Position numbers and translations under genes: made by a program
Notes under the pieces: generated by a model
Database searches by the model: none
Told to the model about the DNA's origin: nothing
What the model saw: only the letters and a program-made list of their open reading frames with translations
In this document: positions 13,183 through 64,000 of the stretch, piece after piece
Position numbering within the stretch: the first letter of the stretch is position 1
Layout: each line of letters starts with the position of its first letter
Source of the DNA: a bacterium
GTDB lineage: Bacteria > Bacillota_I > Bacilli_A > RFN20 > CAG-288
Reading direction: 5' to 3'
DNA length: 64,000 nucleotides
NCBI GenBank assembly: GCA_963660905.1
Contig: CAVKZJ010000003.1
Coordinates: 42,160 to 106,159, forward strand

Positions 13183-13321
13183 AAAAATCCATTGACAACT
13201 TACGCTAGGAAAAAAGAAGTATAAGATAAAAAAATGAAAATGTAAGGGGTTTACCATAGAATATTACCAATCAACTTCTTTTCAATTGGGGAATGAAAAG
13301 CAGGCTGATCAGGGAGGAAAT

Positions 13322-35222: not shown

Positions 35223-36132
35223 AGAAAATCTGTCATCCATGAGTGAAGCGGAAATTGAGAGACTATGTACGATTGCGAGCGTTGAAAGACTGAAAAACAT
35301 CCTGATTGATTATTATGGAGATGAATCAACTAGAAGAAAGCATTACGGAAAAGGATCGAAAGAGTGGAATAATAAAGACAAAAAAAATCCGCCAGCCTCC
35401 TTTGTGAAGAGTTTCTTTGTGTTTCTCTTCACCAAGGAAGAGAATGTTCCTGAAAAATATTATCAGCTGTTCGAAGAGAAACTTTTGAAGACGATTGTCG
35501 GGAAGGAAAAATATCAGAATGCCTCTGCGGAGATGATCCATTCTTCTATCGATGAGGATGAGAAATATAGCCAGAGAGACTATAAGGCGATTCTCTATAA
35601 GGCTTTTGGTTTTGAGTTGGAAAAGGAAGAAGACCTCCCTGTAGAGGAAGCCGACGAAGAGGAAGAAAAGGAAGAAGTGAAAACCAAATTCTCCTTGCCT
35701 AAGATTTCCAAGAAGGATGATGTGGAGACAAGAATCAATCAAGCTGTCAGCAAGCAGGCCAAGGAAGACAAGAAAAACTACGATGACCTGAAGAAGAAAT
35801 ATGACGCATCGGAAAACAAGCTCAAAAAAGCTCAAGAGGATCTTTCTGTTCTGAAGAATTCCTACTCCACGCTGAAAAAAGAACGCGATGGATTCGAAAA
35901 AAAGAATGCGGAGAATGAGGAAAAATTATCTTCCATCCTGAAAAAACTGAATACTCTATCGAAAAGAAAGATGGCTGATCTTGATAAAAATACGCTTTTG
36001 GTTGAGCAGAGCAATGCCGTGGAAATTCTTCAGCTGGCCATCGATGAATTGAAGAAATCCCATTATTCTCTCTCGATGGATCAGATTGTGAAGGCCTATG
36101 TGATTTTAGGTCTTCTTGAGAAGGGAGAATGA
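35209..36132 (+). CDS. coiled-coil protein (307 aa), function unknown
   Basis: Globular N-terminal domain, acidic linker (EEADEEEEKEE), long heptad-like Lys/Glu-rich segment; 14-nt overlap with the upstream gene and ATGA overlap with the downstream gene. Confidence 0.55.
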   Translation: MYLNKENLSSMSEAEIERLCTIASVERLKNILIDYYGDESTRRKHYGKGSKEWNNKDKKNPPASFVKSFFVFLFTKEENVPEKYYQLFEEKLLKTIVGKEKYQNASAEMIHSSIDEDEKYSQRDYKAILYKAFGFELEKEEDLPVEEADEEEEKEEVKTKFSLPKISKKDDVETRINQAVSKQAKEDKKNYDDLKKKYDASENKLKKAQEDLSVLKNSYSTLKKERDGFEKKNAENEEKLSSILKKLNTLSKRKMADLDKNTLLVEQSNAVEILQLAIDELKKSHYSLSMDQIVKAYVILGLLEKGE

Positions 36133-38087
36133 GAATGGAACAGGAAATGGATTTTAGCGGACTGAGCGAGAAATTCGACGAGGTTTCTGATCATGTCGTT
36201 TTGGCTGTTCTCTATAAGACCTTCATGATGCAAAGTCAGAACCATTGCTATTTGCAATGTGCACTTCTTCCGATTTCGGATGAACCGGATATTCTTCTAG
36301 AGAATGAATCGGTTTTCTGGAGCAAAGCCATGATTGATGGGAAATCCTGCTATACTGTCACAGGTGACAACCTTTTGCAGTATCTTGGCAAATGGGATGG
36401 ATATTCTTCTGAATCCGAGGAGGATGTGAGAAGACAAGAGGAAATCATTGTCGAAGCGATGAAGGAGAAAATGCTTCTTTTCACTCCGTATTACAAATAT
36501 GATGAGAGAAAGAATATTTTCTACAAAAATGTCGATTCCAATGAGGACGTCTTGACTCTTCCGCTTCATTATCTCAATGAAAGCTACTTTGTTGTCCCGA
36601 TTCTCAATGAACAGAATTTCAGACTGTTTTTGGCCCACAAAACCTTCTCTCTTTCCAATTGGAATCTGAGTCTCTTTGGAAAACCGAAATATATTCTCTA
36701 TGGAAACCACCTTATTCTTGCTCCTTTAACGACAAGCGAGAACTCGGATTACAACTGCCAATGGGAAAAGAAAGATAAGGATTATCTTGATCTCGAGTTC
36801 GACTTCGATGATTTCGTCTCTAACGGTTTCCTTTACTATGAAAATGGATCGGGATACTGCTTCTTGGAAAAGGCAAGCCTTCCTCTCATGAGGAAAATGC
36901 AGTCCCTTCCTTTCCAAGACGATGATTCACAGGATGAGATGGAGAAAATCGTCCAGCCTTCCGATCAGTATGATACAAGAAAAGCCTTACTCGGCTTTGA
37001 GTCCTATCTGAAAAGCAAGAATCTCTACTATTATGATGACGATGTCAAGAATTTTCATGCCTGTCTGAAATGCCGGCTTCTGACGATTCTTGCTGGCATG
37101 TCGGGAACGGGAAAGACACGTCTTCCCTTGGAATATGCAAACTACTTCAACATGACAGAGGAGAACGGCACGCTTCTTTTTGTTCCGATTTCGCCAAGCT
37201 ATACGGAGCCGAGCGATATGCTCGGATTCTATAATCCGGCCAATGAAAACTATATGTCCAGTGAGACGGGCTTGGTTAGTTTTCTTAAGCATGCCTCAGA
37301 AAATCCTGACAAGATGCATATGGTGGTTTTCGATGAGATGAATCTTGCACAGATCGAATATTATTTTGCTCCCTTCCTTTCGATATTGGAAAGAGAAAAA
37401 GACCGTCGGATTCTTCGACTCTACGACCAAAACCTGGAATGCAAGAATAAGGAACTCTATCCCGATTCCATCAAAATCGGAGACAATGTCCTTTTTGTCG
37501 GAACCATCAATCTTGATGATACGACAAAAGAGCTTTCCGAAAGACTTCTTGACCGTTCATTTGTGATTTCCTTGCGCCGTGCTTCGTTTGATAAATACAA
37601 TGGCGTCATGCTCGATAGGGCAGAAGAAAACGGAAAGATCTATGAAGGGGAATTGATGTCCTTGATGCCAAAGATGGCAAAGACGTTCAACTTCAACTCC
37701 TTTCTGACTCCGACGATGCGAGAATTCTTCGATGAATTCAATCGTCTCCTCTCGGAGAAGGACCCACAGAAAGGCATCTCCTTCAGAACTGTTCGCAACA
37801 TCTCTCTCTATCTTGCCAATTCGAGAATGGAGGAAGACGGTCTACTCGATGACATCGGGGCAAAACAGGCTTTTGACTTTGTTTTCCGTCAGACGGTTTT
37901 AAGAAGAATCCGAGGAAGTGACGAGATTTTGAGCGAAGTGCTTGGATGTCGTACGGAAGATGGTAAAATTCATTCTCCAATCTATGATCTGCTTGAGAAA
38001 TATGGCGAGATATCCTCGTTTGAGCTTTCCAAGCAGGAAATCGCCAATAAAATACTTGAATTGAAGCGGTATGGCTATGTCCGATAA
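36129..38087 (+). CDS. McrB-like AAA+ GTPase (AAA_5 type) with novel about 300-aa N-terminal domain
   Basis: Walker A GMSGTGKT, Walker B VVFDEMN, and McrB-signature GTINLDD...LDRSF (compare McrB GTMNxxD...RRF); the first 300 aa match nothing recognisable. Confidence 0.8.
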   Translation: MRMEQEMDFSGLSEKFDEVSDHVVLAVLYKTFMMQSQNHCYLQCALLPISDEPDILLENESVFWSKAMIDGKSCYTVTGDNLLQYLGKWDGYSSESEEDVRRQEEIIVEAMKEKMLLFTPYYKYDERKNIFYKNVDSNEDVLTLPLHYLNESYFVVPILNEQNFRLFLAHKTFSLSNWNLSLFGKPKYILYGNHLILAPLTTSENSDYNCQWEKKDKDYLDLEFDFDDFVSNGFLYYENGSGYCFLEKASLPLMRKMQSLPFQDDDSQDEMEKIVQPSDQYDTRKALLGFESYLKSKNLYYYDDDVKNFHACLKCRLLTILAGMSGTGKTRLPLEYANYFNMTEENGTLLFVPISPSYTEPSDMLGFYNPANENYMSSETGLVSFLKHASENPDKMHMVVFDEMNLAQIEYYFAPFLSILEREKDRRILRLYDQNLECKNKELYPDSIKIGDNVLFVGTINLDDTTKELSERLLDRSFVISLRRASFDKYNGVMLDRAEENGKIYEGELMSLMPKMAKTFNFNSFLTPTMREFFDEFNRLLSEKDPQKGISFRTVRNISLYLANSRMEEDGLLDDIGAKQAFDFVFRQTVLRRIRGSDEILSEVLGCRTEDGKIHSPIYDLLEKYGEISSFELSKQEIANKILELKRYGYVR

Positions 38088-39747
38088 ACTCTTCGTCACG
38101 ATAAATAAAGAGGAACCGATTGCCTTTGATCTTTTAAAGGAAAAGGAAAGAATCCTCTTTTCAATGAATGATACCTGCCACCTTCGTGTTTCTTTTCATA
38201 CGGATTCCAACGGCCGGTTTTCCATGCAGTGCTATCAGGCATTGAATGAAAAGAAGAACAAGAAAATCACGATTGAAAAAAACATCCTCCTCTTGGATAA
38301 GGATGTTACGTATTATGTTTCCGGAGGAAGCGAATATTATTACCTTCCGGGAGTCTATTGTCTTTACTATGAATGCACCACGGGCAAGAAGACATTCTAT
38401 TTTGAAGTGAAAAATAATTCTGTCTTGGGAAAGGATGGATTTGGAAACATCATCGTAAGACTCGAATCGATTCTTCAGAATATCACCCGTGAGCTTTCCA
38501 GGAAAGGCGATGTGGATTCTTCCGAGCAGTCCTATCCTCTTTTGGCACATCGATTGGAAGAAAATTTTCCTTCCTTCAAGGAACTTGAAAGAAGGATGCT
38601 TTCCTGTCTGAAGGAGGATGTGGTGACGGTCTATGGCTTTTTTTCCTCTGGAAGAGAAGACTACAAGACATTCAGGAGAAACGTCACGCATCCTTTTTCG
38701 GAAAAGATGACGAAGAAAAAAAGACTCTCCTATGATTCGAACGAAAACCGTTTTCTGAAGTATCGGATGAATGCCTTCAAAAGAAAGATATCTTCCCTTT
38801 TGAATTCCCTGAAGGAACAAGAGGTGAAAAATCATCTCTTGCAAAAGGAAGGGATGGAAAAACAGGAAGAGCTTACCAAAAAAAGAGAAGAGAATCTCTA
38901 TATGGATGCTCGGCTTTCCAAGGAAGACCTTGTTCTCCAAAAGAAACAGAATGAGCTGCGAGGAGAAGACAAAGTCATATCTGGCCTGATGGAAATTTTG
39001 ATGAGATACTATCGCATCTGCGGTTCCTTTCTGCAAGATGAAAGAATCAAGAAGGTCAGACTTCTCTCGACACCATCCTATTTATCTTCCTCGCCGATGG
39101 CAAAAGAAATCCGTGACATGCAAAAGAAGATTTTTCCAGATAAGGATAAAGTCTCCTATAAACCGGCTCGCGAACTGTTCGAACTCTATGGCTATTATCT
39201 GATCCACACGGCTTTGATGGAACTCGGCTATCAAAAAACAGACCAATCTCTTTCTGTCCTCAAGGAAAATGAAAGCTTTTTTGTCTATGAAAGTGAACAG
39301 AGGATGGTCAAGGTTCTCTATGGTCCCTTCTGTAAGGATTTCCTTACCAATAAAGAGATGGATTGCACGGTCAGCATCAATTCTCATCACCGATCGCCTG
39401 ATTTCATCATGGAAGTCTATGATTCAAACACAAATGTCTTCCTTTTCGATTTGGTTTTGGAAATCAAATATATCCCGATTTTCAAGTTTGAGGAAAAACC
39501 GGATCTGAAAAAGGATATTTTATTGACAGCGAGCGACTATCTCCAATTCGGCTTTGTCTCTTCAGAAGGATTGCGAGTCGGTGCCGTGAGAAAAGTGATG
39601 ATTCTTTTCCCATCATTGGAAGAGAAAATTGACGACTATCTTTCTTTCCATAAGATTTATCTCTTAGGCATCGACATGAATAAGGAGACCGATGAAAGCA
39701 TGGTCTATTCCTTCCTGAGAGAAGAATTAAGCAAAGAAAATGAATGA
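38071..39747 (+). CDS. McrC-like PD-(D/E)xK endonuclease with long N-terminal extension
   Basis: C-terminal PDF...D-x-EIK motif (SPDFIMEVYD...FLFDLVLEIKY) consistent with the McrC nuclease core; coiled-coil segment in the middle; 17-nt overlap with the McrB-like gene. Confidence 0.65.
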   Translation: MAMSDKLFVTINKEEPIAFDLLKEKERILFSMNDTCHLRVSFHTDSNGRFSMQCYQALNEKKNKKITIEKNILLLDKDVTYYVSGGSEYYYLPGVYCLYYECTTGKKTFYFEVKNNSVLGKDGFGNIIVRLESILQNITRELSRKGDVDSSEQSYPLLAHRLEENFPSFKELERRMLSCLKEDVVTVYGFFSSGREDYKTFRRNVTHPFSEKMTKKKRLSYDSNENRFLKYRMNAFKRKISSLLNSLKEQEVKNHLLQKEGMEKQEELTKKREENLYMDARLSKEDLVLQKKQNELRGEDKVISGLMEILMRYYRICGSFLQDERIKKVRLLSTPSYLSSSPMAKEIRDMQKKIFPDKDKVSYKPARELFELYGYYLIHTALMELGYQKTDQSLSVLKENESFFVYESEQRMVKVLYGPFCKDFLTNKEMDCTVSINSHHRSPDFIMEVYDSNTNVFLFDLVLEIKYIPIFKFEEKPDLKKDILLTASDYLQFGFVSSEGLRVGAVRKVMILFPSLEEKIDDYLSFHKIYLLGIDMNKETDESMVYSFLREELSKENE

Positions 39748-47844: not shown

Positions 47845-50800
47845 ATGTATTATATGATGCTCGAAGTTAGGCATCTGATGCGTACATACAGGGTGAAGAA
47901 TGCCGATCCTGTCTATGCGCTGAATGATGTGTCATTGAAATTCCCGGAAACGGGTCTTGTCTTTATTTTAGGTAAATCTGGTTCAGGAAAATCCACTCTT
48001 CTCAACGTCATGGGCGGATTGGATAAGGCGGATGATGGCGAAATCATCATCAATGGAAAATCCTCGAAGGAATTTTCGGGAAGCGAGATGGATTCCTATC
48101 GTAACACCTATCTCGGCTTCATCTTTCAGGAATACAATATTCTTTCTGATTTCACGGTCAAGGAGAATATTGCCCTTGCTCTGCAATTGCAGCATAAGAA
48201 GGCCACCGATGAGGCCATTGAGAACATTCTTAAGGAAGTCGATCTTTCCGGATATGGAAAAAGAAAGCCGAATGAACTCTCCGGCGGTCAGAAGCAGAGA
48301 GTCGCCATCGCCAGAGCCTTGGTCAAGGAACCGAAAATCATCTTCGGCGATGAACCGACTGGTGCCTTGGATAGCAATACAGGAAAGCAGGTTTTCGAAA
48401 CACTGAAGAAGCTTTCGAAGACGAAGCTGGTCGTCATCGTTTCCCATGACCGTGATTTTGCAGAACACTTCGGTGACAGAGTCATCGAACTGAAGGATGG
48501 GAAAGTCATTTCGGATATCACCAAGACGAGTGTAGAAAGCATCAAGGCTACTTCAGGTCTGTCCTTGATTGGCGACAACATGATCCGAATCGAAAAGAAC
48601 CGACCTTTGACAGCGGAAGATCTTCCCTTGATCAACAAAGCCATCGAGAACGCGAGTAGCGATATCTATATCACCGCCGATAGCCATGCCAATGAAGCAC
48701 TCTGTGAAGCGGCAAGAATCGATAAGGATGGAAATCGTCAGGAATTTGTTTCCACTGATCCAGATAAGATCAAGATGGGAAATGATTCCTTCGATGTCGT
48801 CAAAAGCCGTTTCTCTTTAGGCCATGCCTTCAGAATGGGTGGAAAATCCATGCGAGTGAAGCCTTTCCGTTTGGTTTTCACGATTTTCCTATCGACCATC
48901 TCCTTCTCTTTGTTCGGAACAAGCGCCACTTTGGCGATGTTCTCTGAAAAGAGTGCGGTCAAGAATGTCATCCAGGATAACAAGATCGATGTTCTTTCCC
49001 TCCGCTATTCGGATAAAACGGAAAACGGCAAACAATCGGAAGGATTGAGCGAAGAGAAGATTGCCGAAGTCAAGAAGGAAACCGGGGTGCAGATTTATAC
49101 CTCCAAATACAGCAATCTCAATCTGAATGTGAATACATCAGGCAATGACTTTTTCCATGCGACACAGATGAATTATGCCATGGAAGCAAGTCAGCAGATG
49201 ATGGATGATCTTGGCTTTTCATTGACATGCGGAAATCTTCCGACAAACGAGAGTGAAATCTGTCTTTCCCTTTATGCCTACTATTCTTTGCAGGATTTGG
49301 GAACGAGCACCATCGAGAAGCCGGAGGATGTCCTCGGCATGGAATTCAGCGTTTATCAGTATTCCTCTTCCTCGTCAAGGACATTGACGCTCACGGGCAT
49401 TATCGATACGAAGCTTCCTGAAAAGTATCTCCAGTACCGAACTTCGACGGAGAAACTCGATTGGAGCAATCCGGATTATCAGGCTCTCATGAATTTGAGA
49501 AACAATAGTTCGATTCATACGACCTATTTCTATGGAGGCTCTCAGGGTTCTCAAGGACAGGACAGCGATATCATCATAAATACAAATCTTATGCCGGATG
49601 GTGATAAGTACTACAATCTTTCCTTGGCCTATTATGCCAATCATGCCGATACCTATTTCTTCGATAAGAGCAAGACGAGTCTTTCTTCTGAAGAGGCACT
49701 TGTCTCATCCGAATATTTCCTCAATCTTTTAAGCCAGTCGTCATCTTCCACAAGTGAAAACACATATAGTTTTACCTTCACGGGTGCGCCGGAATACTTT
49801 GGAGGAACCGATTATTCCTTCACGGATGAATCAGAGAACATGATTTCAGAGCATATTCAGCAGGCCGCAAGTTATAAGACAATCAATGACAAGTATAGTG
49901 ATTTCTACCAGAATGATTTTGCGATAGCAAAAGCAATCAATGAAGGAACTGGTTCATACGATCGATGTACTGTGATCATGCCTTCTTATGATTCCGCGTC
50001 TGGAACTGAGGTCTATAAAGATGAAGACTATCAGAATGCGACGAATGAACAGAAGTATCAGCTGTTCAGCTATTATTTCAATAACTATATCCGAAATCAG
50101 AACGACATTTCCTCTTCTTATTACAATTACTATCTGGATGCCATTTCGGGATATCAGAAGGAATTGGCAAACAAATATTCCAACCTGACTGCAGAGTTCA
50201 TCAATCAACAGACTAATGATATTTCTATGAAACTGCAAAATGAATATATTTCGAAATACTATGAGGAAGCCTATCAGAAATACAAAAATCAGTCGTATTA
50301 TGCGGATGCAATCAATCAATTGAAAAAGCAGTACAAAGTCGATGAAGTGACGGATGCCATCAAAAAAGATGTTTTCCAAATGTACTTCTATCAGACTTCA
50401 TATTATAAGCAGTATCAAAGCGACTATAAGAAAAAACAGAAAGAAATCTTCCAGAATTATGATTTCTCGTCTCTGAATTTGAGCATTGTCCCATCAAGTT
50501 CGGAAGATGATAAATATTCTCTCTCCTTCCCGACCTTCCGTGTTGTCGGCGTAGACTTCGACCTGAATTACATGAACATGGCCATCTCCAAGAATGATGC
50601 GGAAACTCTCAAGGCCAAAGAAAATGAAATGGGAATCAGCTACGAAAATCAAATCACGACGGGATATGTCGGCATCTCCAATCAGAATATGGATAAATTC
50701 CTCGATTTCTATTTCAAAAAGAAGAAGTCGCTCGAGGATTATGAATCTGCGGCAGTTGGTTCCTGGAAGTTTGCGATTACCAATAGCGAAGTTTCGACAA

Positions 50801-51234
50801 CAGAGAGCTATGCCTATATGATTGCCATACTGACTCAGGTCTTCCTTTATGTCGGTATTGTCCTAGCCATATTCAGTATGCTTCTCTTCTATAACTTCAT
50901 CTCCGTGTCCATCAATAACAAGAAGAGAGAAATCGGTATTCTCAGGGCAGTCGGTGCCAAGAGAAGCGATGTCTTCAAGATCTTCTATTCCGAAGCCTTC
51001 ATCATCGCGATGTTCAACTTTGTCTTCTCTACCATCATCACCTTCATTCTCTCCTACATCCTAAATCAGGGATTCAAGGAAGCAGCCAGCTTATCCTTCA
51101 ACCTCATGAATCCGAATATCCTAATTATTTTGCTTCTGTTCGGCGTTGCCATCCTGACGAGTTTCATCTCCTCGATTCTTCCTGTCACGAAGATTGCCAA
51201 CAAGAAGCCAATCGACGCAATTCAGAATCGTTAA
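47845..51234 (+). CDS. fused ABC transporter ATPase plus MacB/FtsX-type permease with about 650-aa extracytoplasmic domain
   Basis: N-terminal Walker A GKSGSGKST, ABC signature LSGGQKQR, Walker B IFGDEP; a TM segment at about residue 340, then a long Tyr/Ser/Asn-rich extracellular region; C-terminal FtsX-like 3-TM bundle; the start could be 47854. Confidence 0.85.
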   Translation: MYYMMLEVRHLMRTYRVKNADPVYALNDVSLKFPETGLVFILGKSGSGKSTLLNVMGGLDKADDGEIIINGKSSKEFSGSEMDSYRNTYLGFIFQEYNILSDFTVKENIALALQLQHKKATDEAIENILKEVDLSGYGKRKPNELSGGQKQRVAIARALVKEPKIIFGDEPTGALDSNTGKQVFETLKKLSKTKLVVIVSHDRDFAEHFGDRVIELKDGKVISDITKTSVESIKATSGLSLIGDNMIRIEKNRPLTAEDLPLINKAIENASSDIYITADSHANEALCEAARIDKDGNRQEFVSTDPDKIKMGNDSFDVVKSRFSLGHAFRMGGKSMRVKPFRLVFTIFLSTISFSLFGTSATLAMFSEKSAVKNVIQDNKIDVLSLRYSDKTENGKQSEGLSEEKIAEVKKETGVQIYTSKYSNLNLNVNTSGNDFFHATQMNYAMEASQQMMDDLGFSLTCGNLPTNESEICLSLYAYYSLQDLGTSTIEKPEDVLGMEFSVYQYSSSSSRTLTLTGIIDTKLPEKYLQYRTSTEKLDWSNPDYQALMNLRNNSSIHTTYFYGGSQGSQGQDSDIIINTNLMPDGDKYYNLSLAYYANHADTYFFDKSKTSLSSEEALVSSEYFLNLLSQSSSSTSENTYSFTFTGAPEYFGGTDYSFTDESENMISEHIQQAASYKTINDKYSDFYQNDFAIAKAINEGTGSYDRCTVIMPSYDSASGTEVYKDEDYQNATNEQKYQLFSYYFNNYIRNQNDISSSYYNYYLDAISGYQKELANKYSNLTAEFINQQTNDISMKLQNEYISKYYEEAYQKYKNQSYYADAINQLKKQYKVDEVTDAIKKDVFQMYFYQTSYYKQYQSDYKKKQKEIFQNYDFSSLNLSIVPSSSEDDKYSLSFPTFRVVGVDFDLNYMNMAISKNDAETLKAKENEMGISYENQITTGYVGISNQNMDKFLDFYFKKKKSLEDYESAAVGSWKFAITNSEVSTTESYAYMIAILTQVFLYVGIVLAIFSMLLFYNFISVSINNKKREIGILRAVGAKRSDVFKIFYSEAFIIAMFNFVFSTIITFILSYILNQGFKEAASLSFNLMNPNILIILLLFGVAILTSFISSILPVTKIANKKPIDAIQNR

Positions 51235-52208: not shown

Positions 52209-52992
52209 AGAAAGGCGCTGTTTCAGAGACCATGATTTCCTTATCCCCGATGAGGAATTTTTTTTGTTTTCCTATGTAAATCTCGATTGTGTTTTCCTGT
52301 CGGATGGGAAGATTCATGAACCCATAGCGGATACGATATTCCATAAGGGAATGGATGATCAGCTTTTCATTTCTGAAGGAAATGTCCATGCTCGCTTCCT
52401 TGAAGTCGGGATAGGAGTCGAATTTTCCTCGATTTTTTATGGATAGGGAAAGATGGCAGTGAGTGATTTTTGGGTTCAGGGAAAGAGAATAGGTCTCCTC
52501 TTCCTTATGGATGGATTTGATTCCATCTAAAATGATGTCTTCCGGGAATAGATTCTGGATTGTCATGGATTTCTCGTTTTCTTCTTCCTGGAAGAGTTCA
52601 TTGAGAATCTCATCCTTTTTTCTTGGCTGACAGAAAACCGAATATTTTTTCTGGCAGAGTTTCCCATATGTTTGGATGTAGGTTTGATAATCATATTCCT
52701 TCGGATTCTTTTTTAGGAGATCCGTCTTGTCTTTTCCTTGGTATTCCTTAATCTTGCCATGATTGTCATCGATGGTGAAACTCGCAAAATGGACAAAGCA
52801 GGAATCCGAGAGAGTGGTGATCATGCTTTTCTCTTCCATATAGAAGGCATCTGAATATGTTTTCTGTGTTGTCTCGATGCCCATTAAGGAGACAAAGGAA
52901 AGAGTCTCGGAATGAAGATAGAGTTCATCCTGGGAAAGATAGAAATCCAGGTTGGACAATAAATCTTGAATCAGGTTTTCTTTTACGTTCAT
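52198..52992 (-). CDS. hypothetical protein, paralog of the C-terminal part of the membrane protein at 58428-59663
   Basis: Shared block KKNPKEYDYQTYIQTYGKLCQKKY versus KKNNTPKEYTYDEYIQSYGKLLQGSYY and downstream similarity; no TM segment; start is uncertain (trimmed to MNVKEN, weak RBS). Confidence 0.45.
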   Translation of the reverse strand: MNVKENLIQDLLSNLDFYLSQDELYLHSETLSFVSLMGIETTQKTYSDAFYMEEKSMITTLSDSCFVHFASFTIDDNHGKIKEYQGKDKTDLLKKNPKEYDYQTYIQTYGKLCQKKYSVFCQPRKKDEILNELFQEEENEKSMTIQNLFPEDIILDGIKSIHKEEETYSLSLNPKITHCHLSLSIKNRGKFDSYPDFKEASMDISFRNEKLIIHSLMEYRIRYGFMNLPIRQENTIEIYIGKQKKFLIGDKEIMVSETAPFFSM

Positions 52993-53074
52993 ATGTTTAT
53001 TATACCATTGTACTTTTTCTGGCCAAGCAAAAGAAAAAATATGATATGATAAATGCAAGAAGGAGTTATGAACA

Positions 53075-53977
53075 ATGTCCATATTCACAGTCAAAATCAA
53101 TGATGAATTTTCTCTCAGGGGAAATGATTATCTCATCGAGAATTCGAAAGCCCATCTTCTTGCCATCACAGGCATGAATGAGCATTCTTCCCGTTATGAG
53201 ACGTTCGCTAAGGAACTCAATGCCCATGGCTATTCGGTTTCGGTCTTGGATCATTTCGGCCAGGGAGAGAATGCTCCAAATCCCGATGATCAGGAAAAAT
53301 GGCCGGTTGGCGCATGGAAGATGATGCTCAAGGCTTTGAACAACAAAGTGCAGGAACTGAGAAAGGATGGCAAGCCCGTCTATCTGATGGGACATTCCAT
53401 GGGAAGCTTTGCCATGCAGGCCTACTTGGAAAACTATCCAGACACGATTGACAAGATCATCATCATGTCGAGCAATGGAATGAATAATAGACTCGCCATT
53501 AAGATGGGCTATTGTCTTTCCAAGATGACAACCAATAAGAAGAATTTCGACAAAGAAGATAAATTGATGGCCAAGATGTCTCTCGGTCCTTATATCAAAT
53601 CGGTAAAGGATCGTGAGGATGACAATGACTGGCTTTCCTTCAACAAGGAAAATGTCAAATGCTACAATGCCGATCCGTATTGCGGACACTATAATACCCA
53701 TGGCTTTTTCTTAGGCTTCATGACGGGATTGAAGGAACTCTATAAAAAGAAGAATCTCGCCAAGATTTCCAAGAACGAAAAGATTCTCATTGTGGCAGGA
53801 ACGGAAGATCCGGTGGGCGCCTTTGCAAAAGGACCAAAATCCCTCGAAAAAATGTATCGTTCTTTGGGTATAAAGGATGTCACGCTGATTCTTTATCCAA
53901 ATATGCGTCATGAAATCCTCAATGAAACAGAAAGAGACAAAGTCGTCAACGATATCATTTCCTTCCTCGATAAGTGA
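53075..53977 (+). CDS. alpha/beta hydrolase (lysophospholipase / monoacylglycerol lipase-like)
   Basis: GHSMGS nucleophile elbow; a conserved Asp and HE.L near the C-terminus make a plausible catalytic triad; 300 aa. Confidence 0.8.
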   Translation: MSIFTVKINDEFSLRGNDYLIENSKAHLLAITGMNEHSSRYETFAKELNAHGYSVSVLDHFGQGENAPNPDDQEKWPVGAWKMMLKALNNKVQELRKDGKPVYLMGHSMGSFAMQAYLENYPDTIDKIIIMSSNGMNNRLAIKMGYCLSKMTTNKKNFDKEDKLMAKMSLGPYIKSVKDREDDNDWLSFNKENVKCYNADPYCGHYNTHGFFLGFMTGLKELYKKKNLAKISKNEKILIVAGTEDPVGAFAKGPKSLEKMYRSLGIKDVTLILYPNMRHEILNETERDKVVNDIISFLDK

Positions 53978-54004
53978 TTCGAAAAAAGGAATAGACCCTA
54001 GGAT

Positions 54005-57000
54005 CTATTCCCAATAGCAGAAGTAGGCGTTGTTCTTCAAGGAATCCGGATAGGCTGAACTGGAAGACCAATCGCTTGTGACGGATTTTGTTTTCGACTT
54101 CCCGTTGTCAGTCGGTGTTCCTGCGGATTCCACTGCGCTGATTTCGTAGATGTCGGAACCGAGTTCATCATAGACGAGATTCCAATATTCATAATATCGT
54201 TTCATATAGGTCTTTGCCGTACTGGCGGAGACCTTTTCTAGACGGCTCAGTGTGAATGTGTTGACGCTCGACGAGGAGGTGATATTGACCGTCAGAACGG
54301 AAACAGATAGCATTCCATCAATGGCAATGGATTTCAGGGGCTTATAGGATTTGCCGTTGAGGGTCGTTTCATCCTCATGCTTGATCGTAAGCTTGAGCGA
54401 ATCGATTGAGGCAGGAGATATGTTGAGGAAATCCTTGAGGTTGAGGTCAAGGACGAAAGTGTTCGTCGAAGAATCATAGGATGTGGAATCGGCCTTGATG
54501 ATGGTGGAGAAGTCATTGCTCATGGAGGCAGTGCTATCACTGGAATTCATCGCTTTATAGATTTCGTTGAGAGCGATGTTCCCAGATTCGACAAAAAGTG
54601 TTTTCACGCTTCCGATATTCATCGAATAGTCGAGGATATAGTAAGCTATATTCTTAACGATGTTTTCGCTTGTTGTCTTGTAATAGGTGGAAGAAGCTGT
54701 ATAACGGTATTCTGTTTTTCGATTGAAAATAGAACCGGTTTTCTGTGTTTCGCTTGAAATTGTCGTCTGGTTGACTAGGACTTCCTTTTCCTTGATGAAA
54801 TATTCCGTGACCCTGTTGCCACTATCCGTGACTTTCTTGTTGAACGCGTTGATTCTCAAATAGGCATATGCGGTTTCATTTTCGACGTAGATTTCCGCAT
54901 AGGCACTTGCAGTCACATTTTCGAGTGAAATACCGATGGCTTTGATGTCCAAACTCAAAGTTCCGCTTATCTCGAAGAAGTTGTTTTCCGTGGTATCAAT
55001 TGTACATTCAAGCAGAATTTTGAATCCATCGATATCGACAAAGGAAGAGGATGTGACGTCGGAAACATATTCGAGCATGGTCTTGCTTTCCTTTGTCTTG
55101 GATGTATCCTGCGTCAATGTGCGGGCATAGGATTTCTCATTTCCTGCTTTGAGTGAAAGCGAGAGATCAAGATTGGTCGTCTTTGTCTTTTCATCGACGA
55201 GGTGAATGTATTTTGCCTTGATGGATGCGCCTGTGACCTTCTTTTCCGTGGTGTCATATTGGATTGTCAGAACAGCTTCACTTCCCTCGAGCGAATCGCT
55301 TTTCACAAGCTTCGGATCCAAGCAAAGCGTGATGCTTCCTTCCTGGAAGGATAAGGATTTTAGATATTTGTAGGCAAAGATTCCTGATGTCGACAAGGCT
55401 TTTCCATTGATGACATCCATCAGTGGCGAACCACTTGTCTCGACGACCGAATTCATGAATTTCAGATAACGGAAGAGAAGATTCGAATCGCTGTCGACGC
55501 CATTGATCGTATTCATGATGGAATAGAGATCGCTGTTTTCCATCTTGACGTGCATGTTGTCATTGTATTCCAAAGTGAATTGGCTTCTGTTGACTAGGTT
55601 ATGGGAATTGTTTTCGATCTGTCCATCCAGATCCTGAAGAGCGAATTCGAGTTTCTGGTCTGAGGATGCCTTGCTGGAGTCATTGATATCCTTGTGGGTC
55701 AGGGTGACTTCCCCGGAGATATCCTTCTTTTCACCTGTCATGTCTGCGCTGAGACCTGAGCCTTCCTTGATGGATAAAGTGGGAACGCTGTCTCCTTCAT
55801 TCTGAAGCGTTCCGCTTAAGGATAAGTCGAACTGCTTCAGATCGGTCGGAAGAGAGAAGAGAGATTCAGACAAGGCTTCGAAATTCGTAATCGGAGGATA
55901 GTCAGTTACATTGAAGGAAGAAGAATGATCTTTAACCTGATCAGAGAAGTTCATGCTGAAGGCGAGATTGCATCCGTTTGCTTTTCCTTTGATGGACAAG
56001 GAAAGGATTTCATTTGTCTCAGACAGGGTCAAAACGAATTTCTCTGTATTGCTTTCGTATTTGCTTCCGGCAAAGAACGTCGATGGGTCAAGCGTGAGCT
56101 TGATCGTTCCCTGTTCATCGCTCGAAAGGGAAACAACTCCATCGAGTCCCTTTAAAGAGAGATGATTGCATAAATCATCCTTGAGTGTCTTGAAGGATTC
56201 GCTCTTCGAAAGTGTCTGAAGAATATCCGACATCGAGAAGATGCTCGAGGACGTGTTGGAAGAATCATCCTGGACTTTGGAGTCGATGAGAGCATACATG
56301 GAACGGATATCGCTATCGCTTAAGGAATTGCGGAAGACATAGTCACTGTCCTGATTATATCCATATCCGAAATAGAGATTTTTATCCGTGCCGGAATAGT
56401 ACATCTCGATTCCCTGTCCGATGATGCTCTTTTCATCATTCTTCGAAGAGGGAAGATTCAGGGAGAGGTAGTAGTCGCCTAAGGATGTATAGAGTGTGTT
56501 CTGATCGATGACTCCATTTTTGGAGACATCGACGCTGATTTCTCCTTCTCCATTGAAGGTGACATTCTGCTGATCGGTGAAGATGAGCGAATAGTCCACG
56601 CTGAGTTTTTTCTTGTCGATGAGATTTGCCAAAGAGGAGAACAGATCAAGGCTTTCCGTATAGGAATCATAGTCTTCCTCATTTGGTGGAGTGATCGTGG
56701 TGAAATTGGAAATGGAGAAGGAAAGATTCTCTATGGCGATATCTCCAAAATCCAGTCTGGAAAGAGTGATATCCTTTACTTCATATCCTTCCTCTTCTAA
56801 ATCATTGAAGGAAACTGTCAAGCTAAGATCATCCTTCAAGGATAAGGAAGTGCCATCCAGGGTGATAGAGAAGGATGTCGAAGAGAAGTGATACGCTTTC
56901 AAGAGACCATTGAGGGGGGATAAATCCCCGTTTTTGATCTTCTCAATGCTGCTTTTGTCAACTTTTTTGAAGATGATATTGAGGTTCTCATCGATTTTTT

Positions 57001-58249
57001 CAATCGTAAAATCATTTAACAGTTTACTGATTGTGTTAAAAGTATCTTTCAATTTGCTGTTATCGATTCTTCCTTTGAAAAAACTGTTGAGAGAAAGATA
57101 ACTGGTGCTTTTCTTGAAGTACAAGTCGATGTCATTCAAGGATTTCCCATCGAATGCTTCCTTTTCGTTCTGATCCAAACAGAGAGCATATTCACCGACA
57201 TTGCTATCCAAGAACACGTCTGTGATATCGCAATCCAGTCTTCCTTTTAGATAGGAAGTCTTCGTTGTGGAGTCGTCGATCTTTTTTGATAAATTCGCTT
57301 TTAGATTTATTGAGAATTGCTTCTTTTCTTCTGTGTTGCCAGCGGAGGAATATTTTCCTGAGAAGATATCAGAAAGCAAGGAAAAGATGGAAGAATCCTG
57401 TGATGTGATATCTGTGGAGGAAGAAGAATGGCTTGTATAGGTTGAGATCTCCTTCACATTCTTGATCGTTCCTTCAAGAGCAAAGGCGGAGGTGACATTC
57501 TTCTCAGTCGAGGAAAGAAGAACTTTGTCTTTTGTCTTGATGGAGGTTGGATTTTCCTGCTTGTCTGAAAAAAGAAGGAGAGATAGATTTTGGATATTCG
57601 TTGTCCCGATTGTGAAATCAGGAAGAGAGACGAGGAAGGAATTCTGTGAATCGGATGTTGTGTTTTCTATCGCATTGGCACTCGCTTTCTGTAAAGAAGA
57701 AAAAAGAGAATACAAAGAAACATTTCCACTTTCCGATTTGGAATTGATGTTTAATCCCAACTGCTTGAGCAATCCAAAGAGGTCATCAAATGTCTTGGGA
57801 AGGCTTGTCTTTATGGCGTTTCCTTTTTCTGTGGAGAGATAGAGGTAGTCGTCGGCTTTGTATTCACAGTCGAGATTGATCTTCAACCCTTTATAGGATG
57901 CTGTCAGATTCGTATAGAAATTGAAGGAAAGGGTATTGCTTCCGCTTAGGTCCAAATCAAGGTCTTTCATTTCCAATGCCAAGACATCATTGACAGAGGA
58001 GATATCGGGTGTGATGCTGATTTTCAAGGTATCCATCTGAATCTGTTTGGCAGAAAAGAAACGATTCAGGGCTGTCGAAAGAGAATTGTCGATTCTGTCA
58101 TTCTGATTCTTGTCGATGTCAGGAAGAATGTTTTCTTGGCAGTTTGACTGCTCTTTCTGGATGGAATTTCTTTGGTCGACAAAAGATTCCTGAAAAGGAG
58201 TGATCAAGAAAAGGGTGAAGAAAAGTCCACGAATTGCATTCTTTTTCAT
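54005..58249 (-). CDS. giant Ser/Thr/Asn-rich secreted protein (about 1414 aa), function unknown, probable surface protein
   Basis: Start trimmed to MKKNAIRGLFFTLFLI (signal peptide); low-complexity but non-repetitive polar composition; C-terminal region homologous to the downstream-window part of the gene at 59667. Confidence 0.65.
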   Translation of the reverse strand: MKKNAIRGLFFTLFLITPFQESFVDQRNSIQKEQSNCQENILPDIDKNQNDRIDNSLSTALNRFFSAKQIQMDTLKISITPDISSVNDVLALEMKDLDLDLSGSNTLSFNFYTNLTASYKGLKINLDCEYKADDYLYLSTEKGNAIKTSLPKTFDDLFGLLKQLGLNINSKSESGNVSLYSLFSSLQKASANAIENTTSDSQNSFLVSLPDFTIGTTNIQNLSLLLFSDKQENPTSIKTKDKVLLSSTEKNVTSAFALEGTIKNVKEISTYTSHSSSSTDITSQDSSIFSLLSDIFSGKYSSAGNTEEKKQFSINLKANLSKKIDDSTTKTSYLKGRLDCDITDVFLDSNVGEYALCLDQNEKEAFDGKSLNDIDLYFKKSTSYLSLNSFFKGRIDNSKLKDTFNTISKLLNDFTIEKIDENLNIIFKKVDKSSIEKIKNGDLSPLNGLLKAYHFSSTSFSITLDGTSLSLKDDLSLTVSFNDLEEEGYEVKDITLSRLDFGDIAIENLSFSISNFTTITPPNEEDYDSYTESLDLFSSLANLIDKKKLSVDYSLIFTDQQNVTFNGEGEISVDVSKNGVIDQNTLYTSLGDYYLSLNLPSSKNDEKSIIGQGIEMYYSGTDKNLYFGYGYNQDSDYVFRNSLSDSDIRSMYALIDSKVQDDSSNTSSSIFSMSDILQTLSKSESFKTLKDDLCNHLSLKGLDGVVSLSSDEQGTIKLTLDPSTFFAGSKYESNTEKFVLTLSETNEILSLSIKGKANGCNLAFSMNFSDQVKDHSSSFNVTDYPPITNFEALSESLFSLPTDLKQFDLSLSGTLQNEGDSVPTLSIKEGSGLSADMTGEKKDISGEVTLTHKDINDSSKASSDQKLEFALQDLDGQIENNSHNLVNRSQFTLEYNDNMHVKMENSDLYSIMNTINGVDSDSNLLFRYLKFMNSVVETSGSPLMDVINGKALSTSGIFAYKYLKSLSFQEGSITLCLDPKLVKSDSLEGSEAVLTIQYDTTEKKVTGASIKAKYIHLVDEKTKTTNLDLSLSLKAGNEKSYARTLTQDTSKTKESKTMLEYVSDVTSSSFVDIDGFKILLECTIDTTENNFFEISGTLSLDIKAIGISLENVTASAYAEIYVENETAYAYLRINAFNKKVTDSGNRVTEYFIKEKEVLVNQTTISSETQKTGSIFNRKTEYRYTASSTYYKTTSENIVKNIAYYILDYSMNIGSVKTLFVESGNIALNEIYKAMNSSDSTASMSNDFSTIIKADSTSYDSSTNTFVLDLNLKDFLNISPASIDSLKLTIKHEDETTLNGKSYKPLKSIAIDGMLSVSVLTVNITSSSSVNTFTLSRLEKVSASTAKTYMKRYYEYWNLVYDELGSDIYEISAVESAGTPTDNGKSKTKSVTSDWSSSSAYPDSLKNNAYFCYWE

Positions 58250-58427
58250 TTGTCTATTGTGCTCGGGAGAAAGTATACACATTTTTTGCGTCAAAGAAAA
58301 CAATATTTTCTTCTAACAATCTGACATGAAAACAGTTTTGATATTTAATTATTTTGAAGCTAGAATGTTTATAAAAGAAATATTTTACTTTTGTTTTCTT
58401 TCAACGTATATTTATGTGGTAAAAAAG

Positions 58428-59663
58428 ATGGAAGAAAAAAATAAAGAAGAAAAAGAGAGCCAAGATTTGGTTTGTAAACCAAAAGAAGAAGCACAAAAGC
58501 AGGATGAGGCTCGCATAAAGGAAAAGAACCGAAAAAAGATCAAGGCAAAACCGGATGCCAAGAAGAAAAACTGGATCCCTGTTGCCATTGTCGTCTCCGT
58601 TTCGATTCTTGTCGGTGGAGGAGGAGGCTATCTCCTTTACCGTTGGCAGAATCCGGAATCAGCCACGTTGGCAGGTGCGGGTTTTGAAGGATATGTTCCT
58701 TCCAAGGATGAGATCCAGAAATCGATTTCCAATAATTCATTGGAAAAAGACTATGAAGGAAAATTCTATCAACTGGTGAATTATGCTTTATCGATACAGG
58801 GACAAAGCAAGTACGCGCTGACGATTGGCAAGGCAAAGGTCGTTGCCAATGCAGGTGTCTCCGTCACGCAGAACATCGTTTCCTGCAATTACACGACGCC
58901 GGAAGGAATCTACAATCAGAATGTCTCTTCCTCAAGCGTGGTCAAGACGGCCAACCGCTTCTATGACAATCTCGATGGAAAGGTTCTCGGATATCTCGAG
59001 TCTGTCCCGGATGATTGGAAGAAGAACAATACGCCCAAGGAATATACCTATGACGAATATATCCAAAGCTATGGAAAACTTCTTCAGGGTTCGTATTACT
59101 GCACGACGGTCTTAGATTCGTCCCATGTGACTGAGGCGACGCCGATCTCGGATCGCTATCTGACCTCGGATAAGAGCGTCTATGATTCCTCATCTGAGAA
59201 AAGCAAGCACCATGTCAATGGGGTTGTCATCTATCTCATCGGGCCAAGCAGCGTGAAGAACTCATCCCTTGAGAAAAAGGATGATGGGTATCTTATCTCG
59301 CTTGACCTCTATACAGATAAGGATCGAAAGTCGGCGAGCGATGAAGAAAAAAAGAAGATCTCCATCGGCAATACCTATTATTCTGTTCAGATGCGAACCA
59401 CTGGTGGGCTTAATTCAAGACCATCGTTCTCTCTCACTCATCTCGAATTCACCTTGGATGAAGAACTCCAGCTAGTGTCAACTTATTTCAAGGACGAATA
59501 TTCTGCAACCGTCGGACCGATCAGCTCGACGACCGCAAGCGATATGTATCAGTATTATTTCCGTTCGGAGAGCAATGTCTTCTCCGGCGTGGAAGTCACT
59601 ATTCCCAAAAGCGATGACCCAGATAATTTCGCGGGGTATCAGCTATTTCCTCAGGAGGCTTAG
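58428..59663 (+). CDS. membrane-anchored protein (N-terminal Lys/Glu-rich cytoplasmic tail, single TM, extracellular domain)
   Basis: TM WIPVAIVVSVSILVGGGGGYLLY; 3 nt upstream of the giant-protein gene; start uncertain between 58326 and 58428. Confidence 0.5.
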   Translation: MEEKNKEEKESQDLVCKPKEEAQKQDEARIKEKNRKKIKAKPDAKKKNWIPVAIVVSVSILVGGGGGYLLYRWQNPESATLAGAGFEGYVPSKDEIQKSISNNSLEKDYEGKFYQLVNYALSIQGQSKYALTIGKAKVVANAGVSVTQNIVSCNYTTPEGIYNQNVSSSSVVKTANRFYDNLDGKVLGYLESVPDDWKKNNTPKEYTYDEYIQSYGKLLQGSYYCTTVLDSSHVTEATPISDRYLTSDKSVYDSSSEKSKHHVNGVVIYLIGPSSVKNSSLEKKDDGYLISLDLYTDKDRKSASDEEKKKISIGNTYYSVQMRTTGGLNSRPSFSLTHLEFTLDEELQLVSTYFKDEYSATVGPISSTTASDMYQYYFRSESNVFSGVEVTIPKSDDPDNFAGYQLFPQEA

Positions 59664-59666
59664 AAT

Positions 59667-62600
59667 ATGAAAAAAAACACATGGAAAAGAATCGGAGCAT
59701 TGACACTTTTGGGTGCCTTCAGTGCTTCTGCTTCCGGATCCGCTGTCTATATGATGATGCATGCCACGAAACAGAATCAGGATGCTTCCGACGATATTAC
59801 GATTCCGGATATCGATGACAACAATCAGGAAAAGGAAGAGACCAATCTTTCCAAGACATTGAATTCCTTATTGAATTCCAAGGAGATTTCTTCTGGAAAT
59901 CTTTCCCTGTCCATCAAACCTGTGGGCAAGGAATCCATCGACTTAAAGCTGAACAGTCTCAATGTCGACCTAAGCAAGCTCAACACGAGCGTCGTCAATG
60001 TCGCAACGGATGTCCAGGTTCTTTATGGTAAGTCTTCGACAACAGAGGAAAATGCTGTCAAGAGACTCAATCAGACACTTTCCTTGCGTGTGGAAGAAAA
60101 CGAAGCGTGCTATGTTACCTTCAAGAATCGTAATTTCTGTTTCGATATTCCCCAGAATCTTTCAGATCTGATGGAAATCTTCAAGGCACTCGGCCTTGTC
60201 AAGACAAATGATGCCACTTCAACTTCCTCTTTAGACCTCTCTTCAATCGTCTCGAAAGTCCAGGACTTGGCAGGTGAGATTACGGCGACGGATTCCATTG
60301 AGGATACCGCAAGCGACTTGGTTCATTTCGATATCTCGATTCCAGAAATCACGATTGGCAATACAAAGATCGGAAGCGATGCAGGAAAACTGAATCTGAC
60401 ATTGTATGCGACCAAAGACACCTATCGTCTGAAGAAGATCCAGACGAAGGAAGATATCGCGATCTATTCCAGAAAGGATGAGTCCTCTTCTTTCGAAAAG
60501 AATTTAGCCCTTTCCCTGGATGGACAGATTGAGCTTAAGGAAGTCAGCAGCTATAAGACCTTGACTTCCGAGCAGATCTCGACGTATTCCAATGTCACGG
60601 ATGCCAACACGTCGATTTTCTCGACGATCCAGGATGTCATGGGCAACGATTCGGATGTCTCTTTGGCTGTCCATGTTGAGAAGAGCGTTTCGGATGCTTC
60701 GTCAAGCAGTGTGCAATCCTCCTTCGATGTGAACGGATTGCTTGCGATGGATTGTAAAAAGAATAATTATTCTCTTTCTTTGGACCATCTGAGTGCCGAT
60801 AATGAGAATCTTAATTCCTTGGATGTGAAATTCATCGATAAGAATCTTTATCTGAAGCTGAATGAACTGGTGAAGGGAAGAATATCGGATACCAAGATTA
60901 CCGAGATGTTCTCTTATATTACGAAGATCACGTCTTCTCCATTGATTGAGGTCTTTGCCTCGGAGACACAAACAGTCTTGGGAACTCTGGATATCGACAA
61001 ACTGAAGGATGGCGATATGACGCAGATCCAAGGACTCTTGGATCAGGAGAATACCTATTTCGACTATGATTCCTCCACCTCGAGTTTCACCCTTTCCATC
61101 GATGGAAGCTATCTTGGATTGACGGATGGGGCCATCGTCTTAAAGATCAAATGTTCTTCGGAAAAGAAAATCGAGAAAATCACGATCGAAGGACTCTCCT
61201 TCTCTTCGACGGATTCCACGTCCAATAAGAAAGAGACAACGACGATTTCTCTTTCGATGACTCCAAAAGCATCTACTCAAGAAACCAAAAAGGAATTGAC
61301 TATCAGCGAGGAAGAAAAGAGCCAGTATCAGAATCTTGCCCCGGCCTGTGATATTTTCTCCTCCATTTCGAATTTTGCCCAGAACCAGAAATTCCTGGCA
61401 GATTATACCTTGACCTACAATGACAAGATCAATGACGGAACCAATAATAACTATTCCATGATTTCGGCCAGCGGTTCCATCGGAGCGGATCTTACCTCTG
61501 TGACGAACAAGGGAACAATCCTTGATAAGGTGAGTCAAGGCGATTATCTTCTTTCCATGAAGGCGAGCTGTGGGGAGAGTGTTCATAATCTGAACATGAA
61601 CTATCAGAATCATTGCCTTTATTTTGGATATGACACAATCTATGGAAACAATCCATCGAATACGGTCTTCAAAAACGAAATCGAGAACGTGAATCTCGGA
61701 AAGATGATGACCATCTTAGATAAGAAAACAAATTCCTCGGTTTCCGTTTCCTTTGACCAGGTCTCCAAAGTTCTGGATTTCCTTGGCATGAACGAGGATT
61801 TCCAAAATGCCATCAGGAAAGTCCAGAGCGGTTCTCTTAAAGGCTTTGATGATGTCTTCACTCTCACCTCGAATGAGGATGAGAATGGCGGATATCTCTC
61901 GCTTGTGTTGAATATCGATAAGATTTTCAAATCGGATTCCCTGATCGGAAAGAATCTGAGCAATATCACGATTCTTCTTTCGACGAAAGATAAAAGCATG
62001 AAGAGTCTTTCCATTTCGACAAAGATTTCTTCCACACAGGATTTCTCCTTCACATTGAATTTCTCTTCTTCCTTCACCTCCTTCATCTTGGACGAGGAAG
62101 CCTGCCAAAAATATCAGAAGATCGAGGACTTCAATACGATTGTCGATTCCTTCTACAATCTTGGAAACCAGATTGAGAAATATGGCATCAAGGTCAATGC
62201 GGAATACAAGAAAGACCCGACGCTGGATGAGAACGGAAGCGTTGTCTCCTATGGCAGTGCCTTGACGTTATCTGGTTCGGCTTATTGGGATTTGAGTGTG
62301 AAAGATGATCCGAAATTTGCCGGCAGCCTTGTTCTTTCCCATCCATTTGTCTCAATCGACAACTCACCTCGAATGAGGATGAGAATGGCGGATATCTCTC
62401 GCTTGTGTTGAATATCGATAAGATTTTCAAATCGGATTCCCTGATCGGAAAGAATCTGAGCAATATCACGATTCTTCTTTCGACGAAAGATAAAAGCATG
62501 AAGAGTCTTTCCATTTCGACAAAGATTTCTTCCACACAGGATTTCTCCTTCACATTGAATTTCTCTTCTTCCTTCACCTCCTTCATCTTGGACGAGGAAG

Positions 62601-64000
62601 CCTGCCAAAAATATCAGAAGATCGAGGACTTCAATACGATTGTCGATTCCTTCTACAATCTTGGAAACCAGATTGAGAAATATGGCATCAAGGTCAATGC
62701 GGAATACAAGAAAGACCCGACGCTGGATGAGAACGGAAGCGTTGTCTCCTATGGCAGTGCCTTGACGTTATCTGGTTCGGCTTATTGGGATTTGAGTGTG
62801 AAAGATGATCCGAAATTTGCCGGCAGCCTTGTTCTTTCCCATCCATTTGTCTCAATCGACAACACATTGAGCGTGAAAAAGACCCAGGCTGATCAGAATC
62901 TGAAGTTCAAATATCAGAAGGATTCCTCAAATGATGGCGAACTGACCGCAGACTATAATGAGCATCTTCATGCTGTCTTGCACTCTTCGACCATCAAGGA
63001 TATGGTCAATACCATCTCTTCGACAAGCGAGACATCCTTGTTGAATAATCTCTTGGATACCTCTTCCTCTGTCGCTTCAAATATGCCGATCAAGGACGTC
63101 ATTTCTCTTTCGGCTCCAAGTCTTCTTCTTTCTTACCCATATATTCAGTCCGTGGATTTTTCCGATACGGACAATGAAATCACCATCAAGGTCGATAAGA
63201 GACTCTATAACATCAAGGAAGAAGGGGATTCTGTCATCCTGAAGATCAAATATGAGGATTCTCAGAATCCGATTCTGACTTCTCTCTCTGTTGATCTCTC
63301 CAAGGAAGGAAAGAGTGTCTGCAAAGGAAGCATCGAGCTTGTTCCTTATTCCGAAGAGGAACTTCCCGACGTCTTGGAATACAATGAAGCCAATAAAGGC
63401 AAATTCGTCTCTCTCGATGGATTGAAGAACCTGACGAAGATGATGATCGATACCACGGAAAACAATTACTTCCACTTCCAGGGATATCTCAATCTGGATT
63501 TCACCATGTTTGAGAATTCCACTTCCCAGCAGCCGATCAATCTGGATGCTCTCTGCTTCGATCTGAATTTCAATGTTTCCCTCTATATCGATGAAAACGG
63601 CGATGTGAATACTTATCTGGCATTGAAGGTCGGAAATGAGACGATTCAGCAATCTGGCTATTATGTGACGGAATTTGCCTTCACAAGCAAAGAAGATGTC
63701 GATTATGTCTATATGGACAACACCAGAACGGATGCTGTCTTGGATGAAAACGAGAATGTCGTCAATCAGATTTCCTCGACGGCTTATCGTGTGACCAAGA
63801 AGGAATTCGAAAACAATATTCTCTACTATCTTGTCTCCCAGGGTCTTGGCATCGATGACAGAATCGCGGGAAAGACCGTGATGGCAAATATCTATCAGAC
63901 ACTGAAGAACAAGGAAGACGGAAAGAATTCCTCTTCGACTCAGAAATCAGAGGATGTCTCCTCTTTGACGACGAATCTGTCCATTCAGCTCAATTCGGAT
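59667..64000 (+). CDS. giant Ser/Thr-rich secreted protein paralog; reading frame interrupted by a 500-bp tandem duplication (as assembled: ORF 59667-62411, continuation in +2 frame from 62364 to beyond the window end)
   Basis: Signal peptide MKKNTWKRIGALTLLGAFSASASGSA; the frame opened manually from 62864 has no stop through 64000 and aligns with the C-terminal third of the 54005-58249 protein (IDTTENNYFHF versus IDTTENNFFEI). Confidence 0.6.
61864..62863 (+). repeat. perfect 500-bp direct tandem duplication (2 x 500 bp)
   Basis: Copy 1 at 61864-62363 and copy 2 at 62364-62863 are identical at every anchor checked (cttattggga at 62281 and 62781; ctcaatcgacaac ending at 62363 and 62863); 500 is not divisible by 3. 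Confidence 0.85.

Follow-up and report, generated by a model that had tools for sequence, protein, structure and literature searches.

The 64-kb window analyzed here, by which the whole stretch of DNA under study is meant, ends inside a large gene on the plus strand. This gene starts at ATG 59667, downstream of a strong AGGAGG Shine-Dalgarno sequence, and as assembled it terminates at 62411 (59667–62411, plus strand; 914 aa). Such a ribosome-binding site is suggestive of a Firmicutes-like host. A second plus-strand gene (58326–59663), which encodes a membrane-anchored protein that belongs to no family, lies 4 nt before it, and the two genes probably form one operon. Next to this pair, an intact paralogue of the interrupted gene (54005–58303, minus strand; 1432 aa) is divergently transcribed. 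The two paralogous proteins share 25% identity over about 1380 residues (E 2e-56). In the rest of the window, the IleRS, UvrC, and MutS2 proteins have the same lengths as in relatives.

The feature that interrupts the large gene is a tandem repeat. Two copies of a 500-nt unit are arranged head to tail on the plus strand (copy 1, 61864–62363; copy 2, 62364–62863), and a direct string comparison found 500 of 500 positions to be identical. Tandem Repeats Finder places the array at 61863–62863 (period 500, 2.0 copies, 100% matches, 0 indels, score 2002) and detects no other array in the last 9 kb of the window. Outside of the 500-nt copies, the identity extends by 1 nt to the left (a C at 61863, 62363, and 62863) and by 0 nt to the right. 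The C that is common to both copies at the left edge brings the repeated stretch to 1001 nt, a small correction to the original prediction. Microhomology at the duplication junction thus amounts to this 1 nt, which is about the level expected by chance. Across the 64-kb window there are 462 exact 40-mer repeats, every one of which is found at offset 500, and this confinement to a single offset excludes a chance origin of the repeat. No other long exact repeat was found in the window or in the fetched related loci, and an artefact of overlapping chunks that recurs every N kb was rejected for both on these grounds. Inverted repeats of at least 40 nt were likewise not found in the window, and no flanking short repeats or other features that promote recurrent duplication were found at the endpoints of the 500-nt unit. 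The sole sequence that distinguishes the duplicated from the single-copy state is the novel junction at 62346–62383 on the plus strand, at which the end of one unit meets the start of the next (…ATCGACAAC followed by TCACCTCG…, also written as …ATCGACAAC followed by TCACCTCGAATG…).

The consequence of the repeat for the reading frame is a premature stop. Copy 1 is read in the native frame and encodes residues 733–899, and ribosomes that arrive from 59667 read copy 2 one base out of register. The resulting ORF consists of 899 native residues and a 15-residue frameshift tail (SPRMRMRMADISRLC), and its TGA (62409–62411) lies 47 nt beyond the junction. The remainder of the gene continues in the +2 frame from 62366 to 64000 on the plus strand, where it reaches the window end without a stop codon; 199 further codons lie outside. 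When one 500-nt copy is deleted in silico, the frame from ATG 59667 is open for 1278 codons up to the window end, with no further stop or frameshift, and the restored ORF is collinear with its homologues. An in-frame domain duplication was rejected: 500 is not a multiple of three, and the copies are identical. On the minus strand, the antisense ORFs at 61640–62086 and 62194–62586 have their first 74 residues in common and starts that are 500 nt apart. A second twin pair (61716–62108 and 62282–62608, minus strand) behaves likewise, and these twin ORFs are by-products of the 500-nt repeat. The original prediction had described a perfect 500-bp tandem duplication at 61864–62863, a frameshift that ends the ORF 47 nt after the junction, an open remainder in the +2 frame, and the first pair of minus-strand ORFs as by-products; all four descriptions were reproduced.

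Comparison with other strains, which had been proposed as a check, shows the relatives to be single-copy. The 90%-identity cluster of protein P0001 has 20 members, and among the 15 that are listed, 14 are full-length proteins. These 14 close homologues, which come from different assemblies, are 1476–1478 aa long, share 92–93% amino acid identity with the collapsed window protein, and align with it end to end with 0–1 gaps. Six more distant homologues (26–56% identity, 1443–1579 aa) are also collinear with the collapsed protein. A duplicate, either at this position or elsewhere in the gene, is present in none of these 20 homologues (14 close and 6 distant) and in none of three aligned loci. The three loci (L002, L003, and L004) are collinear with the window over 11–12.7 kb at 84–88% DNA identity; a scan of the GTDB representative genomes returned two relatives only. 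In BLAST comparisons with the three loci, the sole rearrangement within the gene is a pair of segments that overlap by 500 nt on the subject and meet at window position 62362/62363, and in a multiple alignment with the same loci the window carries a clean 500-nt insertion. Copy 2 is therefore the extra copy, missing from all relatives. At the level of sequence comparison, these alignments prove that the interrupted gene is normally one uninterrupted gene of about 1477 codons.

The same loci provide a measure of selective constraint. Between the collapsed window gene and its counterparts in L002, L003, and L004, dN/dS is 0.05 along the full gene; for the 379 codons that follow the frameshift, it is 0.045. 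These values argue that the gene has been under strong purifying selection until essentially now, including the part beyond the frameshift, so that the interruption, if real at all, can be only generations old. An old or decaying pseudogene was rejected, since dN/dS is 0.045–0.05 on both sides of the break and the gene contains no other stop or frameshift.

An interruption that is only generations old would mean that a tandem duplication truly arose, spontaneously and very recently, in the population that was sequenced, by way of an illegitimate and essentially homology-free join. This explanation is a serious contender, although it falls somewhat short of being probable. Two products would result, an N-terminal piece of 914 aa that is secreted or anchored and a remainder of 730 aa that lacks targeting, and the allele would in effect be null. 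Because recombination between the 500-bp copies would remove exactly one of them and restore the gene, the state would be unstable and revertible. Phage or antibody pressure, for example, could for a time favor cells that have lost an exposed envelope protein. The duplicate does stand in the deposited record, its precise collapse gives back a fully open frame, and zero divergence between the copies, combined with strong constraint on both halves of the gene, fits so young an event. Graph assemblers would also be expected to need junction reads in order to emit such a path. Bacterial tandem duplications are in general unstable and are lost by recombination between the copies. The identical 500-bp direct repeats would similarly be a good substrate for deletion, so that a real duplicate would be expected to revert. 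The classical unstable duplications are large and arise between copies of rrn or IS elements, whereas the present one is a small intragenic duplication with a junction that is essentially free of homology. A real event would, however, make the exact length of 500 nt a coincidence, would have had no useful microhomology at its junction, and is absent from all 20 homologues. In addition, the allele would need to be the prevalent one in a natural population even though it inactivates a gene with a dN/dS of 0.05 and even though recombination would frequently remove the extra copy.

A precedent that speaks for a real duplication is found in pneumococcus, where reversible tandem duplications within the ORFs of cap3A, cap8E, and tts switch these genes off (Waite et al. 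2001, 2003, as cited in PMC4243769). As in the capsule phase variation outlined in that article, a tandem duplicate within an ORF disrupts an envelope function here, and precise loss of a copy restores the ORF. In the pneumococcal system as it is presented there, switching was seen in experiments and occurred repeatedly in independent variants, whereas the present duplicate comes from a single record with no recurrence in 20 homologues. The interrupted gene is also different from the pneumococcal capsule genes and is uncharacterized.

The likely nature of the gene product was approached by structure prediction, since its sequence has no Pfam, NCBIfam, or PDB match. An AlphaFold model of residues 1–899, built from 10 sequences, has a modest mean pLDDT of 61 and a pTM of 0.34. 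In this model, an N-terminal hydrophobic helix (residues 10–35) is followed by repeated blocks of long β-strands with interspersed helices. The best PDB matches that Foldseek returned for the model are LprG (3mh8, E 9e-5, target TM about 0.5) and members of the LolA family, and these LprG/LolA matches span E values of 9e-5 to 2e-3 and target TM values of 0.35–0.54 at an rmsd of about 9 Å. Proteins of the LolA, LolB, and LprG type are single-domain lipid-binding half-barrels of about 200 aa. The protein studied here differs from them in its length of about 1477 aa, its N-terminal membrane helix, and its lack of a sequence-family match, and the predicted likeness of residues 1–899 to LprG and LolA is weak. 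A LolA/LprG-like fold is accordingly best treated as a weak lead and not as a classification, and the secondary-structure pattern of the model suggests that the product may contain several such modules. From the predicted helix, it is reasonable to regard the product as a putative N-terminally membrane-anchored envelope protein. The gene had originally been described as one for a giant surface protein: the N-terminal hydrophobic helix makes this plausible, but a surface location is not proven, no family is matched, and the fold signal is weak.

A probable exposure at the envelope, as predicted from the N-terminal membrane helix and the LolA/LprG-like fold signal, would suit an evolved on/off phase-variation switch, in which the 500-bp copy would be gained and lost at high frequency and a surface antigen would be displayed by part of the population. 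Duplication and collapse are also reversible in principle. Such a switch is nevertheless extremely improbable, as no relative carries a duplicate anywhere in the gene, the endpoints of the unit are devoid of short repeats, and the window is devoid of inverted repeats of at least 40 nt. No recombinase was found among the neighboring genes scanned (about 39.9–59.7 kb). Homology-free forward duplication is moreover rare, so that switching to the OFF state would be slow. The reversible switch that had been raised at the outset is thus disfavored as an evolved device, given that 0 of 20 homologues are duplicated and purifying selection acts on both sides of the break. A real duplicate could revert, as tandem repeats generally can, but this ability does not amount to a designed mechanism. 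A related proposal is very doubtful: the duplicate would be real, and the contig would record a gut commensal whose spontaneous, revertible duplication switch stood at OFF and silenced a giant membrane-anchored envelope protein made up of LolA/LprG-like modules, from a family that is uncharacterized. If this were true, duplication-based phase variation of the pneumococcal type would also occur in an uncultured commensal, and with a much longer unit; the pneumococcal units are reportedly shorter than 500 bp.

The public record already contains the gene in two pieces. An NCBI contig of 110,498 bp encodes protein P0002 (914 aa), which matches the window ORF exactly, frameshift tail included. Protein P0011 (730 aa), from the same contig, is the downstream piece; a gene caller placed its start at TTG 62408, in overlap with the TGA that ends P0002. 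P0011 adds 199 residues beyond the window, and the uninterrupted protein is therefore 1477 aa long. Other proteins of the window (NadE, IleRS, MutS2, UvrC, and a hydrolase) are found on the same single contig. A duplicate that was planted, or made by the scan pipeline, was rejected because both split products are NCBI-derived proteins on this contig. The exact collapsed 1477-aa protein is absent from a collection of 15 billion proteins, and no independent intact assembly of this strain is known, nor does another of its contigs span the site.

The same strain is also present in SRA run SRR13434620, solely as contigs of 3.6–4.4 kb. Of these, Logan contig L001 matches window positions 57013–60631 exactly and L005 matches 52655–57042 with 2 mismatches; together they reach only to 60631, short of the 500-nt repeat. 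The two contigs overlap each other by exactly 30 nt, which equals k−1, and they consequently end at branches of the assembly graph. Judged from these contig sequences, the branching indicates probable co-existing strain variants, and the deposited contig seems to come from a metagenome bin whose sample shows strain branching. Partial products that were guessed for SRR13434620 on the premise that its assembly graph branches at the borders of the repeat (167, 430, 588, and 1165 aa) were not found, and a 321-aa positive control from L001 was missing as well. A degenerate 38-mer of the junction had 0 matches in the JGI metagenome contigs, as did the control (the normal unit-to-downstream boundary), which places the species outside the JGI collection.

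With modest confidence, we favor the explanation that the second 500-nt copy arose as an artefact at the assembly level in one deposited, metagenome-derived contig. This preference rests on several features: the unit is exactly 500 nt long with 500 of 500 positions identical, the duplicate is unique to one record among 20 homologues, the broken gene is strongly constrained (dN/dS 0.05), and the source resembles a metagenome bin with strain branching. The 1-nt microhomology is also more in keeping with blunt joining or a software cut than with short-repeat slippage, and duplications of the slippage type mostly rely on short repeats. Natural duplications have no preference for round-number lengths. 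By our own estimate, the chance of hitting any "round" length is about 1%, and coincidence is possible. In its identical copy, single record, broken conserved gene, and round length, the duplicate resembles the false duplications and loop mis-traversals of draft or metagenome assemblies, and the apparently metagenomic source with strain-level branching is a further likeness. False duplications in assemblies are mostly located at contig ends, gaps, or known repeats, whereas the duplicate here is interior and lies in unique sequence.

If the second copy is such an artefact, the real gene would be a single uninterrupted ORF of 1,477 codons for an N-terminally membrane-anchored envelope protein. 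In the assembly graph, the single-copy and duplicated states would differ by a junction path of 30–60 nt alone, and a few chimeric reads might suffice to create this path. Template jumping during PCR could yield such reads, as could a library fragment of about insert size that was intramolecularly ligated or circularized. Given these reads, an assembler or polisher that resolves repeats would pass through the 500-nt loop one time more than the genome does. By an alternative route, a processing step with a 500-nt chunk, window, or overlap setting might write one piece twice. The artefact would in turn account for the "proteins" of 914 and 730 aa and for the twin antisense ORFs. Against this explanation, we know of no program for which the insertion of an exact 500-nt duplicate into the interior of a sequence has been documented, and nothing usable was found in the literature on assembler loop or duplication artefacts. 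The junction k-mers of a de Bruijn graph must also exist in some reads, and these more often represent real DNA than chimeras. Two further observations point the same way: the rest of the 64-kb window is clean, with no other exact repeat and with IleRS, UvrC, and MutS2 of normal length, and reversible duplications within ORFs are documented in pneumococcal capsule genes.

The duplicate is, then, either an assembly error, which is most likely, or a brand-new mutation, and under neither reading does it represent a novel type of genetic element. If it is an artefact, one public record mistakenly presents a conserved 1,477-aa gene as two "proteins" of 914 and 730 aa, the entries for which (P0002 and P0011) already stand separately in protein collections, and metagenome bins would be worth screening for exact duplicates of round length. 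If it is real, one more gene was knocked out by a fresh, revertible tandem duplication, a known phenomenon that touches no open question. Of greater biological interest is the gene family, which comprises paired, divergently transcribed genes for membrane-anchored proteins of about 1,450 aa that carry no annotation. Finally, the gene at 58326–59663 is annotated as 445 aa, and its relatives are 410–415 aa long; the real start is therefore probably ATG 58428, which gives a 411-aa product.

The interrupted gene (window 59667 to beyond 64000, plus strand) belongs to a three-gene module that also comprises a large paralogue on the minus strand (54005-58303) and a gene for a membrane protein of approximately 411 aa (58326-59663, plus strand). 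The two large proteins are divergently transcribed, membrane-anchored and approximately 1,430-1,480 aa in length, and share 25% identity (E = 2e-56). For the interrupted gene product, residues 1-899 were modeled with moderate confidence, and the top match of this N-terminal model is to LprG/LolA-type lipid-binding half-barrels. The module may represent an undescribed envelope or lipid-handling family of an uncultured gut Firmicutes-like lineage. It is conserved, being present also in the related locus L002 (4332-14437), and is without family annotation. A gene encoding a fused ABC ATPase and FtsX-permease protein of 1129 aa (47845-51234, plus strand) is likewise conserved beside the module in relatives (L002).

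The ORF called at 58326 encodes 445 aa and is probably too long, with window 58326-58427 as the excess, because its relatives are 410-415 aa in length and an internal Met is present at codon 35 (MEEKNKEEK…). If this Met is used, the true start is probably 58428, which would give a divergent intergenic region of 125 nt.

Two Logan contigs from SRA run SRR13434620 cover part of this region. One of them, L005, differs from window 52655-57042 at 2 positions and abuts the other, L001, at window 57013-57042 with an overlap of exactly 30 nt. These two features indicate that closely related strains exist side by side in the sample. A further collinear locus, L004 (CAVCCX010000020.1), is titled Bacteroides uniformis isolate H07666-L1_cleanbin_000019. 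Based on its collinearity with both the window and L003, a "bacterium" bin, and on the strong AGGAGG ribosome-binding site of the window gene, which is atypical for Bacteroides, L004 is probably mis-binned or its bin wrongly labeled.

Elsewhere in the window, three paralogous GH3-type glycosidase genes lie in tandem on the plus strand (8396-12196, 1266 aa; 13286-16252, 988 aa; 16711-19680, 989 aa), with diverged 62-nt direct repeats between them. They match models for beta-glucosidase, xylosidase and arabinopyranosidase only at sub-threshold level, and the order of their GH3 domain segments appears permuted relative to these models. Finally, two overlapping plus-strand genes, one of 652 aa with a weak McrB-like match (36129-38087, E = 3e-5) and one of 558 aa with no hit (38071-39747), may constitute a McrBC-type restriction pair.
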